Shown here piece after piece: positions 6,853 through 47,437 of a DNA stretch of 64,000 bases. Numbering within the stretch: the first letter of the stretch is position 1; each line of letters opens with the position of its first letter. The translations under genes and the position numbers were made by a program. Under the pieces are notes generated by a model, which was given only the letters and a program-made list of their open reading frames with translations, did no database searches and was not told the origin of the DNA. Source of the DNA: Escherichia coli (GTDB taxonomy: Bacteria > Pseudomonadota > Gammaproteobacteria > Enterobacterales > Enterobacteriaceae); assembly GCF_003018255.1 (NCBI RefSeq), contig NZ_CP027440.1. One strand, 5' to 3'.

Positions 6853-6985
6853 TTTGCTCCTGCCATAACGTGAAGAAGCAATGACCTGGTGGTCCGTGAC
6901 TTCCCTACGCTGGCATTATCCAGATCAGGTGATACGGGTATTTCTCAGCCTTCACAAAGAAGGGCACCCCGAGTCGTTTGGTTGC
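6853..6985 (-). promoter_or_regulatory. TPP (THI-box) riboswitch in the thiM leader
   Basis: Minus-strand sequence contains CTGAGAAATACCCGTATCACCTGATCTGGATAATGCCAGCGTAGGGAAGTCACGG, which matches the classical E. coli thiM TPP aptamer, immediately 5' of thiM. Confidence 0.85.
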
Positions 6986-7072
6986 GATAATAAATCGCAG
7001 AGGAGGATGGTAATGTCCAGCGCACGCGTTGTAAACGGGGAAAAACGGCGGTATTACAATCGCGTTAATAAA

Positions 7073-7428: not shown

Positions 7429-7465
7429 GAATCAGATTGCCGAATTAATACTAAGAATTATTATC

Positions 7466-8290
7466 ATGACCGAATTTACAACACTTCTTCAGCAAGGAAA
7501 CGCCTGGTTCTTCATCCCCAGCGCCATCTTACTTGGTGCGCTTCATGGCCTGGAACCGGGGCACTCAAAAACGATGATGGCGGCGTTTATCATCGCCATC
7601 AAAGGCACCATTAAACAGGCGGTGATGCTCGGACTGGCAGCAACTATTTCGCATACCGCAGTGGTCTGGTTAATTGCCTTTGGCGGGATGGTGATCAGCA
7701 AACGCTTTACTGCTCAATCAGCAGAACCGTGGCTCCAGTTGATTTCCGCAGTGATCATTATTAGCACCGCGTTCTGGATGTTCTGGCGTACCTGGCGCGG
7801 CGAACGCAACTGGCTGGAGAATATGCACGAGCATGATCATGAGCATCATCACCACGATCACGAAGATCACCACGACCATGGACATCATCACCATCACGAA
7901 CATGGCGAGTATCAGGATGCCCATGCACGAGCCCATGCCAATGACATTAAACGACGCTTTGATGGTAGAGAGGTCACCAACTGGCAAATTTTGCTATTTG
8001 GCTTAACCGGTGGCCTTATCCCCTGCCCGGCAGCAATTACCGTGCTGTTGATTTGCATTCAGTTGAAAGCCCTGACACTGGGCGCAACACTGGTCGTCAG
8101 TTTCAGCCTCGGCCTGGCGTTAACGCTTGTCACCGTAGGCGTTGGCGCAGCAATCAGCGTTCAGCAGGTCGCAAAACGCTGGAGCGGATTTAACACTCTC
8201 GCTAAACGCGCTCCCTATTTTTCCAGTCTGTTGATTGGCTTAGTTGGTGTGTATATGGGCGTACATGGCTTCATGGGCATAATGCGATAA
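7466..8290 (+). CDS. rcnA: Nickel/cobalt efflux permease
   Basis: 274-aa membrane protein with a His/Asp/Glu-rich loop (HEHDHEHHHHDHEDHHDHGHHHHHEHGE). Confidence 0.9.
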   Translation: MTEFTTLLQQGNAWFFIPSAILLGALHGLEPGHSKTMMAAFIIAIKGTIKQAVMLGLAATISHTAVVWLIAFGGMVISKRFTAQSAEPWLQLISAVIIISTAFWMFWRTWRGERNWLENMHEHDHEHHHHDHEDHHDHGHHHHHEHGEYQDAHARAHANDIKRRFDGREVTNWQILLFGLTGGLIPCPAAITVLLICIQLKALTLGATLVVSFSLGLALTLVTVGVGAAISVQQVAKRWSGFNTLAKRAPYFSSLLIGLVGVYMGVHGFMGIMR

Positions 8291-25889: not shown

Positions 25890-25979
25890 TTACTTCAACA
25901 AATCAATCAACCGTAACAGAGCCACTAATAGCTCCAGTACAGCAATGAGCACGGTTAACTTTTGTGTCAGCGTGTCCAT
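25890..25979 (-). CDS. zorO: Type I toxin small hydrophobic peptide, 29 aa (ZorO-like)
   Basis: Minus-strand ATG..TAA encodes MDTLTQKLTVLIAVLELLVALLRLIDLLK; AAGGAG SD 5 nt upstream; long 5' UTR; flanking hairpin terminator; too short for the ORF track. Confidence 0.7.
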   Translation of the reverse strand: MDTLTQKLTVLIAVLELLVALLRLIDLLK

Positions 25980-26217: not shown

Positions 26218-26300
26218 GTTGAGATGCCATGTTGCACTATCAGTAACTTAACATCAAAGTAGTAAATAAAAGAACCTGCCTCACCAGCAGGTTCTTTTAT
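26218..26300 (+). ncRNA. orzO: Divergent antitoxin sRNA (OrzO-like), about 80 nt
   Basis: Consensus-like promoter TTGCAA-17-TATAAT (26183..26211), then a transcript ending at hairpin gaacctgc-ctcaccagc-gcaggttc plus T-run; 5' end gttgagatgccatgttgcact is complementary to the toxin 5' UTR (26053..26073). Confidence 0.6.
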
Positions 26301-26497: not shown

Positions 26498-26587
26498 TTA
26501 CTTCAACAAATCAATCAACCGTAACAGAGCCACTAATAGCTCCAGTACAGCAATGAGCACGGTTAACTTTTGTGTCAGCGTGTCCAT
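26498..26587 (-). CDS. zorP: Type I toxin small hydrophobic peptide, 29 aa, second copy (ZorP-like)
   Basis: Coding sequence identical to copy 1 (same 29-aa peptide), same SD and terminator hairpin. Confidence 0.7.
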   Translation of the reverse strand: MDTLTQKLTVLIAVLELLVALLRLIDLLK

Positions 26588-26825: not shown

Positions 26826-26908
26826 GTTGGTACGAAATGTTGCACAATCAGCAAGTTAGCGTCATTGTAGTAAATAAAAGAACCTGCCTCACCAGCAGGT
26901 TTTTTTAT
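26826..26908 (+). ncRNA. orzP: Divergent antitoxin sRNA, second copy (OrzP-like)
   Basis: Promoter TTGCAA-17-TATAAT (26791..26819); 5' segment gttggtacgaaatgttgcaca is complementary to the copy-2 toxin UTR (26661..26681); same terminator hairpin. Confidence 0.6.
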
Positions 26909-34139: not shown

Positions 34140-34610
34140 TTAGCTTTTCTTCACATGCTGGCGCGCTGCCAGTCCACGCAGAAAATAACGTAAAAATTGA
34201 TCGCCGCATTCGCGGAAGTTTTTATGATCCGGTGCACGCATCATCGCCGTAATTTCCGGCATCGAAACACGGAACTGCTGTTCGGTAAGGATCGCCAGAA
34301 TGTCATCGGTTTTCAGCGAAAACGTGATGCGTAATTTTTTCAGCACGATGTTGTTATTAATGCGACGTTCCGGCTCCATTGCCGGAGCAGACTCATCCTT
34401 GCCACGTTTTTCATAAATCAGGCCATTGAGGAAGGAAGACAAAACAATGTCCGGACAACGCTGAAAACCCTCTTCGTCTTCTTTACGTAGCCAGACGGCG
34501 ATCTGTTCCGCGGTGGCTTCGACATTACCCAGCGCCAGAATACGCACCAGGTCATTATTATTGGCTTTCAAAATGTAGCGCACGCTGCGCAGAATATCGT
34601 TACTTAGCAT
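34140..34610 (-). CDS. yehS: DUF1456 family protein
   Basis: Start set at the internal Met (MLSNDILRSVRYILK) for 156 aa; position next to btsR. Confidence 0.7.
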   Translation of the reverse strand: MLSNDILRSVRYILKANNNDLVRILALGNVEATAEQIAVWLRKEDEEGFQRCPDIVLSSFLNGLIYEKRGKDESAPAMEPERRINNNIVLKKLRITFSLKTDDILAILTEQQFRVSMPEITAMMRAPDHKNFRECGDQFLRYFLRGLAARQHVKKS

Positions 34611-35376: not shown

Positions 35377-37058
35377 GCCTCGTCCCTCCATGGTAGTCGT
35401 AACGTTATTCGGGTGTAACAATCAGGCTCACAGGCGACGCTTATCCCATAGTCATCGCCAAACCGTTCACGTAAACGCTTATCCACCAGATTCATCCCCA
35501 GCCCACTGGCATTGGTTACCGGTTGATACAAACCGGCATTGTCTTCGATCTCCAGCATCAAATGTTGCCCCTCACGTCGGGCGCTGATTGCCACTCGCCC
35601 TGTATCCAGCAGTTGTGATGTCCCATGTTTAATGGCGTTTTCCACTATCGGTTGCAGGGTAAACGCGGGCAATTGCTGCTGGGATAATTCTTGCGGAATA
35701 GCAATGTTGACCTGCAACCGCGACTGGAAGCGCGCCTTTTCAATTTGCAGATAAGCGTTCACATGTTCAATTTCGTCTGCGAGAGTAACAAACTCCGAAG
35801 GCCGCTTTAAGTTTTTGCGGAAAAAAGTGGAAAGATACTGGACCAGCTGGCTGGCCTGTTCGCTGTCGCGGCGGATCACCGCTTTAATGGTGTTAAGCGC
35901 ATTAAACAAAAAATGGGGGTTCACCTGGGCGTGAAGCAGTTTGATCTCTGACTGGGTGAGCATCGCTTTTTGCCGCTCATATTGCCCGGCGAGGATCTGC
36001 GCCGAAAGCAGTTGCGCAATCCCCTCGCCCAGCGTGCGGTTGATTGAACTGAATAAACGGTTTTTGGCTTCATACAATTTGATGGTGCCCATCACCCGCT
36101 GATTTTCGCCACGCAACGGAATGACCAGCGTCGACCCCAGTTTGCATTGCGGATGCAAAGAGCAACGATAAGGTACTTCGTTGCCATCAGCGTAGACCAC
36201 TTCACCGGTTTCAATCGCTTTTAAGGTGTAAGTCGAAGAAATCGGTTTGCCGGGTAAATGGTGGTCGTCACCAATTCCGGTAAAGGCCAGCAATTTCTCT
36301 CGATCGGTAATCGCGACTGCACCAATATCCAGCTCCTGATACAGCACCTGTGCCACTTTCATGCTGTTCACTTCGTTAAACCCCTGGCGCAAAATGCCTT
36401 CCGTCGAGGCAGCCACTTTTAGCGCAGTGGCAGAAAAAGCCGAAGTGTATTTTTCAAACATCGCGCGTTTATCGAGCAATATACGCATAAACAGCGCCGC
36501 GCCGACGGTATTGGTAACCATCATTGGCGCAGCAATATTACTCACCAGACGCACCGCATCTTCATAAGGTCGGGCGATCGCCAGGATGATCAACATTTGC
36601 ACCATTTCAGCGACGAACGTGACGGCACCGGCGGTAATGGGGTTAAAGACTTTATCAGTGCGCCCGCGACGGATCAGGATGCTGTGTACCAGGCCGCCGA
36701 GCAACCCTTCAACGATGGTCGAGATCATGCAACTTAGCGCGGTCATGCCCCCCATCGAATATCGATGTAACCCGCCGGTCAGACCAACCAGCCCACCGAC
36801 GACCGGACCGCCGAGTAAGCCGCCCATTACCGCGCCTATCGCACGGGTATTGGCAATAGAATCGTCAATGTGCAACCCAAACCAGGTGCCCATGATGCAG
36901 AAGATGGAAAAAACGATGTAGCAGAGAAATTTATGCGGCAGACGAACCGTGACCTGCATTAACGGTATGAATAATGGCGTTTTACTCATTAACCACGCAA
37001 TGACTAAAAAAACGCACATCTGCTGAAGCAGCAGCAACACCAGATTAAAATCGTACAT
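35373..37058 (-). CDS. btsS: LytS-type sensor histidine kinase of the BtsS/BtsR system
   Basis: Start set at the internal Met ([14 protein letters not shown]) for 561 aa; N-terminal multi-TM domain, GAF-like region and His-kinase C-terminus. Confidence 0.85.
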
Positions 37059-37279
37059 ACTCGCAAACCACACTTCCCTTTAAAACGCGTAACATACATT
37101 GCTTGCGTTTAACTTTCTTTGAACTCTTGCAGAAAAATGAGAATTCGTGAGTACGATCACTCAAAATCGCCTGGCAAAAATAAAATCACCCTATAGATGC
37201 ACAAAAAACGGGCAAAACTACCTGGTTCGCAAAACTGCGTCTAAAGTTAAACCGGGACCTCGCGAGCAAGGGTGAGACG

Positions 37280-38011
37280 ATGGCGCTTTACACAATTGGT
37301 GAAGTGGCGTTGCTTTGTGATATTAACCCTGTCACGTTACGCGCGTGGCAGAGGCGTTACGGATTGCTGAAACCGCAACGGACAGACGGCGGTCATCGGC
37401 TGTTCAATGATGCCGATATTGACCGGATCCGCGAGATCAAACGCTGGATCGACAACGGCGTGCAGGTCAGCAAAGTTAAAATGCTGCTCAGTAATGAAAA
37501 TGTTGATGTGCAGAACGGCTGGCGCGATCAGCAAGAAACATTACTAACTTACCTGCAAAGCGGCAATCTGCATAGCCTGCGAACGTGGATCAAAGAGCGC
37601 GGTCAGGATTACCCCGCCCAGACACTCACCACGCACCTGTTTATTCCTCTGCGCCGACGACTTCAGTGCCAACAACCGACTCTCCAGGCGCTGCTGGCGA
37701 TCCTCGACGGCGTACTGATCAACTACATCGCCATTTGTCTGGCTTCGGCACGTAAAAAACAGGGTAAAGATGCGCTGGTGGTTGGCTGGAATATTCACGA
37801 TACCACCCGTCTGTGGCTGGAGGGCTGGATTGCCAGTCAACAAGGATGGCGCATTGATGTCCTCGCCCACTCGCTCAATCAACTACGCCCTGAACTGTTC
37901 GAAGGCCGTACATTGCTGGTGTGGTGCGGTGAAAATCGAACCTCCGCCCAACAGCAGCAACTCACCAGTTGGCAGGAACAAGGCCATGATATTTTCCCAC
38001 TCGGCATTTAA
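37280..38011 (+). CDS. mlrA: MerR-family transcriptional regulator
   Basis: 243-aa ORF with N-terminal MerR HTH (YTIGEVALLCDINPVTLRAWQRRYGLL). Confidence 0.85.
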   Translation: MALYTIGEVALLCDINPVTLRAWQRRYGLLKPQRTDGGHRLFNDADIDRIREIKRWIDNGVQVSKVKMLLSNENVDVQNGWRDQQETLLTYLQSGNLHSLRTWIKERGQDYPAQTLTTHLFIPLRRRLQCQQPTLQALLAILDGVLINYIAICLASARKKQGKDALVVGWNIHDTTRLWLEGWIASQQGWRIDVLAHSLNQLRPELFEGRTLLVWCGENRTSAQQQQLTSWQEQGHDIFPLGI

Positions 38012-38070
38012 TCATTCGTTAACAAATGCGCTTTACTGTACAATCCTTTCGTTAACATAAGGAGTGCATT

Positions 38071-38178
38071 ATGCGCATAGCTAAAATTGGGGTCATCGCC
38101 CTGTTCCTGTTTATGGCGTTAGGCGGAATTGGTGGCGTCATGCTCGCAGGTTATACCTTTATTTTGCGTGCTGGCTGA
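38071..38178 (+). CDS. yohO: Small single-TM membrane peptide, 35 aa
   Basis: ATG preceded by TAAGGAG; encodes [35 protein letters not shown]; below the ORF-track cutoff; 3' end overlaps convergent yehW. Confidence 0.6.
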
Positions 38179-38890
38179 ACGCCTGCACCAGCCTTTCAAA
38201 CAGGCGGTCTGCGATGATCGCCGCCAGTGCCACCAGTAACGCTCCCTGGATCACATACGCGGTATTAAATCCGCTAAGTCCGATGATGATGGGCGTACCC
38301 AGCGTGTTGGCCCCTACCGTTGAGGCGATCGTCGCCGTGCCAATGTTGATAATCACCGAAGTTCGTACACCCGCCAGAATCACCGGAGCTGCCAGCGGTA
38401 GCTCGACCTTACGCAGTCGCTGACTACAGCTCATTCCCATGCCTTTGGCAACTTCGGTCACGCTGGCATCAATCGATCCCAGCCCGGCAAGTGTCGCCTG
38501 CAGGACGGGCAGCACACCGTAAAGGATCAAGGCGATAATCGCCGGTTGCTGACCAAAGCCGATCACCGGAACGGCAATCGCCAGCACTGCAACGGGCGGA
38601 AAAGTCTGTCCAACGGCGGCAATAGTTTCCACCAGTGGACGAAATTCCGCGCCCCAAGGGCGAGTGACAGCAATTCCGGCACCAGTACCAATGATCACCG
38701 CAAACAAACTCGAAATTCCCACCAGCCAGAAATGAGCCAGTGCCAGAGCTGCAAAGCTTTCCTGCTGATAAACGGGTCGTGGCAGTTGTGGGAACAAGGC
38801 AGCAAACAGCGGCTGGCTGTAAGGCAGCCAGAAAATCAGCGCCACAAACAGAGCAATCAGCCAGAACAGCGGATCGCGCAACATCTTCAT
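38159..38890 (-). CDS. yehW: Osmoprotectant ABC transporter permease
   Basis: 243-aa membrane ORF; last gene of the osmF-yehYXW operon. Confidence 0.85.
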
Positions 38891-38894
38891 ACGA

Positions 38895-39821
38895 TTACGC
38901 CTCCTCCAGCAGATCCTGAAAATGCAGCGTGCCGCAAGGCTCGCCCTGCGTGTTCACCACCGGCAGCACCTCGCATCCCCGCGCGACAAACAGAGAAAGC
39001 GCATCGCGTAGCGTCATCTCTTCTGCCAGCGCCTCACCTTCTGCCCGTTCTTCGCGACGCACGTAATCCGCCACGCTACGTAACGAAAGCAGGCGGACAC
39101 CCAGTTCACTATGCCCAAAAAACTGGCGGACAAAATCATTCGTCGGACGAGTCAGCATCGTCAGCGGATTGCCCTGCTGCACCACTTCACCGTGATCCAT
39201 CAACACCAGATGTTCTGCCAGTCGTAGCGCCTCATCAATATCATGAGTGACCAGCACAATGGTACGCCCCAGCAAACGGTGTATGCGCGTCATCTCTTGT
39301 TGCAACGCGCCGCGCGTTACCGGGTCCAGCGCGCCAAAAGGTTCATCCATCAGTAAGACTTGCGGATCGGCAGCCAGCGCGCGGGCCACTCCCACACGTT
39401 GCTGCTGACCACCGGAAAGCTGATGCGGATAACGCTCACGCAAATTTGGCTCCAGCCCCAGTAGCGCCATTAATTCGTCGATACGATCGTCGATCCGCGC
39501 CCGTGACCATTTTTGTAATTGCGGCACGGTGGCAATATTTTGCGCCACGCTCCAGTGGGGAAACAGGCCAATAGATTGAATGGCATAGCCCATCCGGCGG
39601 CGCAACTCCAGCACTGGCAGCGAGCGAATTTCTTCTCCGGCAAAGCGGATCACGCCACTGTCATGCTCCACCAGGCGGTTAATCATTTTCAGAGTGGTGG
39701 ATTTACCGGAACCCGACGTGCCAATCAGTACCGAAAAACTCCCTTCCTGAAAATTGAGATTGAGATCGTTAACGGCTTTTTGTGCGCCGAACAGTTTGCT
39801 GACATGGCTAAATTCAATCAT
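38895..39821 (-). CDS. yehX: Osmoprotectant ABC transporter ATP-binding protein
   Basis: 308 aa; Walker [13 protein letters not shown] signature LSGGQQQRV, Walker B VLLMDEP. Confidence 0.9.
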
Positions 39822-47264: not shown

Positions 47265-47437
47265 GATGAGCATTCAGATAGTGGTTCACGCGCACGGGTT
47301 GCGCACCGCCGGAGTAAGGATTTACTGAGGCTAGCGACGCCATCATAACGAGCAAAAAGTGCGATCGTCAAAGAAGAATCGTGAGGAAATGCTGCATTGC
47401 TGACATTTACGCCAGCAATGCAGCGCAAAAGAACTTT

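Follow-up and report, generated by a model that had tools for sequence, protein, structure and literature searches.

yohO of Escherichia coli, a conserved gene for a 35-residue membrane peptide with a phase-locked overlap of the yehW end

What is the 35-codon open reading frame (ORF) between mlrA and yehW of Escherichia coli, and does the locus act through its peptide, through the neighbouring transporter or through the RNA shared with yehW? In this study, we analysed this frame within a stretch of 64,000 nucleotides of E. coli DNA, called the window here, to which all coordinates refer. An initial annotation had read the frame as yohO, a gene for a hydrophobic 35-residue peptide that is preceded by a strong ribosome-binding site (TAAGGAG) and an ATG, and that overlaps the 3' end of the convergent gene yehW by 20 nt. 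The ribosome-binding site and the ATG were confirmed by reading the sequence, and the ORF coordinates bore out the convergent arrangement and the overlap. The gene and its immediate neighbours are as follows.

37280-38011, plus strand: mlrA, an ORF of 243 aa (RefSeq annotation), whose stop lies 59 nt before the yohO ATG
38058-38064, plus strand: Shine-Dalgarno sequence TAAGGAG, 6 nt upstream of the yohO ATG, read from the sequence
38071-38178, plus strand: yohO coding sequence, ATG, 35 codons, TGA stop at 38176-38178, encoding a single-pass membrane peptide
38159-38178, both strands: segment shared by both C-termini, (F)ILRAG-stop of yohO on the plus strand and SQHAK-stop of yehW on the minus strand
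38159-38890, minus strand: yehW, an ORF of 243 aa, 'glycine betaine ABC transporter permease YehW' in RefSeq, last gene of the osmF-yehYXW operon

We are nearly certain that the feature at 38071-38178 (+) is yohO, a genuine and known gene for a 35-residue inner-membrane protein. The peptide encoded in the window is identical to the translated YohO coding sequence annotated in NZ_CP027452.1. It matched the NCBIfam equivalog NF010225 'protein YohO' with 80.1 bits against a curated cutoff of 57 (E = 8.8e-23), and the match ran end to end, with residues 1-35 on profile positions 1-35 of 35. Both the name and the peptide sequence given in the initial annotation were thus borne out, the name by this profile match and by the RefSeq annotation of an identical peptide between mlrA and yehW. 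YohO of E. coli (WP_001216963.1; NF010225 / PRK13681) has the same 35-aa sequence and the same position between mlrA and yehW, and we found no difference from it. The locus tag in K-12 is presumably b4542, and we take the UniProt family to be UPF0387. The gene has reportedly been in the annotation since the 2008 small-protein surveys (those of Hemm). It is a catalogued E. coli gene, real and already known.

The region is nearly universal in the species. A 501-nt query covering mlrA-yohO-yehW was matched at 95% identity or more in 5423 of 5426 complete E. coli genomes, with a median of one place per genome. In all ten RefSeq records listed, yohO was annotated at the matched region as 'protein YohO' between mlrA and yehW. 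The gene had also been described as missed by length-filtered ORF calling; this holds for naive ORF lists and fails for current RefSeq, which calls yohO in the records listed. Among the 5427 region matches, two were on plasmid-labelled records and one genome had two copies, which may reflect misassigned replicons or duplication. The family itself is narrow. Among 1.84 billion representative proteins, a full HMMER scan gave 17 matches at E 0.001 or better, and many of these were frameshifted or chimeric forms of the same peptide. Pfam has no family for YohO; a sub-threshold match to B12D (E = 0.36) was rejected.

Short ORFs are abundant in this region. As many as 46 of at least 20 aa overlap the 2.5-kb stretch 37000-39500, so that a length of 35 codons is by itself not beyond chance, and this abundance is what would favour reading the frame between mlrA and yehW as a chance one rather than as a gene. 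A comparably strong Shine-Dalgarno sequence is rarer, as it precedes only 14 ATGs in the 64-kb window, mostly the starts of long genes. Two further short ORFs in the window have a strong Shine-Dalgarno-like sequence before the ATG, one at 7013 (+, 39 aa, GAGGAGG) and one at 34300 (+, 38 aa, TAAGGA). What takes yohO beyond chance is the combination of the ORF, its start codon, its strong Shine-Dalgarno sequence and a frame-specific pattern of substitution, which is kept across the loci of other species.

Conservation was examined in contigs from one genome per species, using a degenerate DNA pattern for G-I-x-G-V-M-L-(A/V)-G-Y (residues 19-28), which gave at least 120 loci. Of the 120 listed, 119 carry an ORF of 34-37 codons of the YohO family; the remaining one was a chance match inside an actinobacterial permease. 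The loci listed represent about 35 genera of Enterobacterales, comprising the Enterobacteriaceae together with Erwinia, Dickeya, Brenneria, Lonsdalea and Sodalis. ATG stands at the aligned first codon in 115 of the 117 complete copies among these loci. In the other two copies, the N-terminal part is frameshifted (L061 from Citrobacter amalonaticus AUH_CA_2023_1 and L092 from Enterobacter sp. EA-1), through either pseudogene formation or an error of assembly; C. amalonaticus also has an intact yohO in another genome (L098). A core of 13 residues is nearly invariant in the loci listed, although the invariance of residues 19-28 is partly a matter of ascertainment, since the search pattern covers them. 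Codon 21, which the pattern leaves free, encodes only Gly (100) or Ser (14).

Selection was estimated by the Nei-Gojobori method on codons 2-18, which lie outside the search pattern. In the yohO frame, the median omega was 0.35 and the ratio of summed dN to summed dS was 0.38. The corresponding values were 0.87 and 0.85 in frame +1, and 2.8 and 2.6 in frame +2; all of these come from 17 codons and non-independent pairs, with dS partly saturated (median 1.06). Column entropy, summed by codon position, was 22.0, 10.4 and 31.2 at positions 1, 2 and 3, respectively. The YohO peptide is thus under purifying selection, in the yohO frame only. Purifying selection had been proposed as a check on the gene, and the check was positive (about 0.35 in frame, compared with 0.87 and 2.8 in the shifted frames).

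Ribosome occupancy was the other proposed check, and here too the published record is positive. [quoted passage not shown] The 35-aa protein was also detected by top-down mass spectrometry in a 2025 proteomics paper. In Shigella flexneri, the yohO transcript falls without oxygen, with a published log2 fold change of -2.96. The frame-specific purifying selection and the published detection of the protein already refute a chance open frame, and the conservation and the annotation in RefSeq and NCBIfam also count against it; its probability is negligible.

We next considered how yohO would be expressed. The following elements lie between the mlrA stop and the Shine-Dalgarno sequence.

38015-38024, plus strand: first copy of the direct repeat TTCGTTAACA, directly after the mlrA stop, holding a conserved TAACA box
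38039-38044, plus strand: putative yohO -10 hexamer TACAAT, 26 nt upstream of the ATG, placed by its conservation
38048-38057, plus strand: second copy of TTCGTTAACA, in the predicted 5' UTR, its TAACA box abutting the Shine-Dalgarno sequence

A GGAG-type Shine-Dalgarno core at near-fixed spacing was found in most of the 115 intact yohO loci listed; a minority has GGAT, GGAA or GGAC in place of GGAG, or a shift of 1-2 nt. In 29 aligned upstream regions, the 80% consensus at the position of the putative -10 hexamer is TATAAT, for which E. coli has TACAAT. A strict scan returned no canonical sigma-70 promoter for yohO. It misses this -10 because there is no good -35 at 16-18 nt, the best candidate, TTAACA, being only 14 nt away. 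The two copies of TTCGTTAACA, a 10-nt direct repeat, are 33 nt apart and flank the putative -10. The upstream TAACA box (38019-38024) is located 14 nt upstream of the -10, and its TAAC is kept at 80% or more in the genera compared; in the downstream box (38052-38057), the whole TAACA reaches this level in the 29 upstream regions. In several genera, the upstream copy lies inside a palindrome, TTAATG-GTT-CATTAA. These signals suggest that yohO is transcribed from a promoter of its own, with a 5' UTR of about 20 nt. The repeated TTCGTTAACA/TAACA element may be the binding site of a regulator, and its upstream copy may alternatively be an unusual -35.

The membrane character of the peptide, which the initial annotation had assigned, was borne out by hydropathy. 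YohO has a GRAVY of 1.58, and its 19-residue Kyte-Doolittle windows peak at 2.41 (residues 8-26). The hydrophobic stretch is flanked by the positive charges R2, K5 and R33. This profile supports the prediction of one membrane span. AlphaFold2, run with a 35-sequence alignment, gave a consistent model (mean pLDDT 86.5) in which residues 3-34 form a helix with a one-residue break at G18 (3-17 and 19-34). In the best explanation of the data, yohO is an independently expressed gene whose product has one kinked transmembrane helix.

The centre of this helix is unusually dense in small residues, A16, G18, G19, G21, G22, A26 and G27, which form a nearly invariant face. In the YohO sequences of the loci listed, position 16 is Ala in 112 of 114, positions 18 and 21 are only Gly or Ser, and position 26 is only Ala or Val. 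Within this face lies a zipper, G18-xxx-G22-xxx-A26. Such a face, including the zipper, would allow tight packing of helices within the membrane, either as self-association of YohO or as binding to a larger membrane protein, which YohO would modulate in its activity or stability. We put this forward tentatively, at somewhat below an even chance, from the residue pattern and from analogy. Several small membrane proteins of E. coli modulate larger ones, namely AcrZ with AcrB, MgtS with MgtA, MgrB with PhoQ, CydX with CydAB and KdpF with KdpABC. YohO resembles these small proteins in having at most 50 aa, one hydrophobic helix, its own Shine-Dalgarno sequence and start codon, conservation among enterobacteria and a small-residue helix face suited to intramembrane packing. 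It differs from them in that it is in no operon with a candidate partner, and the adjacent YehZYXW transporter is dispensable for its retention. A profile search of the PDB found no chain matching the YohO family, which places it outside the solved complexes, and a search of the accessible literature returned no function, partner or phenotype for YohO.

The gene next to yohO encodes a permease. We examined the genomic context of yohO in relation to this transporter. In one matching E. coli record, the gene order is btsR, btsS, mlrA, yohO (108 nt), yehW, yehX, yehY, osmF and bglX. The window has the orthologous arrangement, with mlrA upstream on the same strand and yehW convergent downstream. 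The mlrA-yohO order is kept in most of the Enterobacteriaceae loci listed, and about 100 of these have yohO tightly and anciently adjacent to yehW. This adjacency, the location of both products in the inner membrane and the glycine-rich helix face, which would suit packing against a permease, favour the idea that YohO serves the YehZYXW (OsmF) ABC transporter as a dedicated accessory subunit or regulator, much as KdpF serves KdpABC. However, yohO and yehW are convergent and not co-transcribed, and neither co-transcription nor obligatory co-occurrence with YehZYXW, as expected of a KdpF-like subunit, was found. No solved transporter structure has a YohO-like chain.

In Dickeya, Brenneria, Lonsdalea and three genomes labelled Enterobacteriaceae, yohO is convergent to bglX, and both the yeh operon and mlrA are missing. 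At least 13 loci have yohO next to bglX without yeh genes, and idi lies between the two genes in some Brenneria loci. In Erwinia, yohO is found in another context again, also without the yeh operon or mlrA. The bglX equivalog scored 1510 and 1472 bits at yeh-less loci, which also carry idi, DinG and an RhtC-like gene. Altogether, 18 of the loci listed have no yehW within reach, and two of these (Siccibacter, L014, and Phytobacter, L102) are contigs that end just after yohO. Since bglX is located just beyond osmF in E. coli, the yeh operon represents an insertion or a deletion between yohO and bglX. The retention of yohO without yeh, mlrA or the overlap argues against a dedicated YehZYXW subunit, and likewise against a purely antisense role. 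We regard a dedicated transporter subunit as very unlikely; if YohO does pack against a larger membrane protein, the partner is probably not the YehZYXW transporter. In Brenneria alni (L119), yohO and the 3' end of a convergent idi seem to share 20 nt (oriented 7442-7549 and 7530-8132), and in two other Brenneria loci yohO and idi are 19-35 nt apart. That the overlap in B. alni has the same length as that of yohO and yehW in E. coli is probably a coincidence.

We then investigated the overlap itself. In the window, the coding sequences of yohO and yehW share exactly 20 nt, TTATTTTGCGTGCTGGCTGA. The overlap could be scored in 100 loci listed with yehW downstream and its end readable, and the tail-to-tail overlap is kept in 99 of them. 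It measures 26 nt in 51 loci, 20 nt in 44 and 23 nt in 4; the single exception is Sodalis, where yehW is adjacent and a gap of 10 nt separates the genes. Read on the yohO strand, the yehW stop appears as TTA or TCA, and in every case it occupies the last two bases of yohO codon 30 and the first base of codon 31. With this placement, the wobble base of yohO codon 30 sets the yehW stop as TAA or TGA, and the synonymous codons TTT and TTC at F30 switch yehW between these two stops (38159-38161 in the window; loci L002-L121). An A as the first base of yohO codon 32 would end yehW earlier, and in loci with the overlap this base is never A. Only genomes that lack the overlap encode a YohO with Thr or Ile as residue 32.

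The two proteins are not equally constrained in the shared segment. In this antisense phase, the wobble positions of yohO are the second codon positions of yehW. In line with this, dissimilar residues replace one another in the YehW tail (E/A/G/V, R/H, Q/R/K), whereas YohO keeps an almost fixed tail. The summed amino-acid entropy in the shared segment was 0.91 for YohO compared with 6.67 for YehW in the 26-nt class, and 4.75 compared with 7.18 in the 20-nt class. The lower entropy of YohO indicates that selection on the shared segment acts mainly on YohO, with the YehW C-terminus as a passenger.

Since the coding sequences overlap, full-length mRNAs of yohO and yehW must be complementary at their 3' ends. 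The initial annotation had suggested that this may produce antisense interference, which is plausible and unproven. We found no convincing intrinsic terminator between yohO and yehW on either strand, only weak consensus matches, and folding z-scores between the genes were -0.35 and -0.04. Beyond each stop, C is modestly more frequent than G in the RNA, weak evidence that is compatible with read-through followed by Rho-dependent termination. The pair has also been catalogued. In the ExcludonFinder paper (Nucleic Acids Res 2025, PMC12288877), yohO-yehW is among 165 convergent excludons of E. coli MG1655, defined as present in at least 50% of 58 MG1655 transcriptomes. The same paper states that dsRNA validation was not feasible for convergent pairs, and it describes no pair-specific test.

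Like the convergent excludons of that catalogue, yohO and yehW are convergent neighbours whose transcripts overlap at their 3' ends, as both the 20-nt coding overlap and the MG1655 listing document. What sets the pair apart is that both coding sequences extend into the overlap, whose phase is the same across genera. The functional hallmark of an excludon is mutually exclusive expression; yohO-yehW is listed as one by its overlapping transcripts. One could propose from this that the role of the locus is mainly at the RNA level, with the peptide secondary: transcription of yohO, starting at its conserved promoter and running into the end of yehW, would form a convergent excludon that down-regulates osmF-yehYXW, or vice versa, by transcriptional interference or by RNase III cleavage of the 3' duplex. 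The near-universal retention of the coding overlap beside yehW, the lack of a strong intrinsic terminator between the genes on either strand, the moderately C-rich downstream RNA, which would permit read-through until Rho acts, and the excludon listing are all in line with this proposal. Against it stand the strong frame-specific purifying selection on the peptide and the finding that, inside the overlap, the YohO frame is the conserved one. In addition, yohO persists with its Shine-Dalgarno sequence and promoter where yehW is missing (Dickeya, Brenneria, Lonsdalea, Erwinia and the three loci labelled Enterobacteriaceae), yehW of Sodalis is adjacent without overlapping, and the catalogue itself could not validate dsRNA for convergent pairs. 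A mainly RNA-level role is highly improbable.

A regulatory effect of the overlap could also exist beside the function of the peptide. It is, in our judgement, rather doubtful that the 3' overlap measurably regulates one or the other transcript, and the conservation of the overlap could reflect historical inertia rather than selection for antisense regulation. A more elaborate version would treat the phase-locked overlap, which changes in steps of 3 nt (20, 23 and 26), as a selected device. Together with the conserved promoter, it would couple YohO inversely to the sigma-S- and osmotically induced OsmF-YehYXW, and YohO would act through its glycine-zipper face on a membrane partner. We consider this version unlikely.

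A short hydrophobic peptide with a strong Shine-Dalgarno sequence and a transcribed opposite strand also recalls type I toxins, and the window offers a bona fide pair for comparison, zorO/zorP with OrzO/OrzP. Its elements are as follows.

25890-25979 and 26498-26587, minus strand: two identical ORFs of 29 aa, MDTLTQKLTVLIAVLELLVALLRLIDLLK, with the same ribosome-binding site context, TTAATAAGGAGA
26225-26298 and 26833-26906, plus strand: OrzO-P antitoxin RNA (Rfam, 90.2 and 88.9 bits)

The paired 29-aa ORFs and OrzO-P RNAs form a known type I toxin-antitoxin locus, zorO/zorP-orzO/orzP in tandem. We take this locus to be absent from K-12, which would place the window in another E. coli lineage. 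Two other Rfam matches in the window, both on the minus strand and above the gathering score, are known elements unrelated to yohO: a Peptidase-S11 RNA motif at 47269-47349 (72.8 bits), presumably upstream of pbpG, and a TPP riboswitch at 6885-6981 (71.2 bits), presumably upstream of thiM.

YohO is similar to ZorO/ZorP (29 aa) in being short and hydrophobic, with a strong Shine-Dalgarno sequence and antisense transcription nearby. If yohO were a type I toxin-like gene, it would encode a membrane-damaging peptide held in check by antisense RNA, here the last part of the yeh operon transcript. Type I toxins tend to have a patchy distribution, often with duplicated copies. Although this is not strictly defining, yohO has neither property: in the loci listed, which cover about 35 genera and span families of Enterobacterales, it occurs as a single copy in strict synteny and is inherited vertically. 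Unlike zorO/zorP, yohO has no match to an antitoxin RNA or sRNA family; Rfam finds OrzO-P in the window and no family at yohO. A dedicated antisense sRNA with its own promoter was likewise not found, as the antisense RNA at yohO is the end of an operon mRNA, and within yohO the minus strand has a single promoter-like site, which is weak (9-of-12 match) and occurs at the frequency expected by chance. Published observations also speak against toxicity. Endogenous YohO reaches detectable levels in growing cells, and living cells of an ASKA yohO clone under IPTG induction came through round one of a growth-based alanine-export screen before the clone was lost. A type I toxin is barely credible here. 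The locus is better read as an independently expressed gene for a membrane peptide.

As a discovery, yohO is of small value: the gene, its translation and the idea of an antisense overlap with yehW are already published, and YohO is one of many validated bacterial microproteins without a known function. This study adds that the overlap is conserved in a locked phase, that constraint within it is unequal, that the promoter region has a conserved architecture and that yohO is independent of the yeh operon. These observations give several handles for the study of YohO: the nearly invariant small-residue face of its helix, a conserved promoter region with two TAACA boxes, the peptide rather than the YehW tail as the constrained partner in the shared 20-26 nt, and a gene that does not depend on the yeh operon or mlrA.
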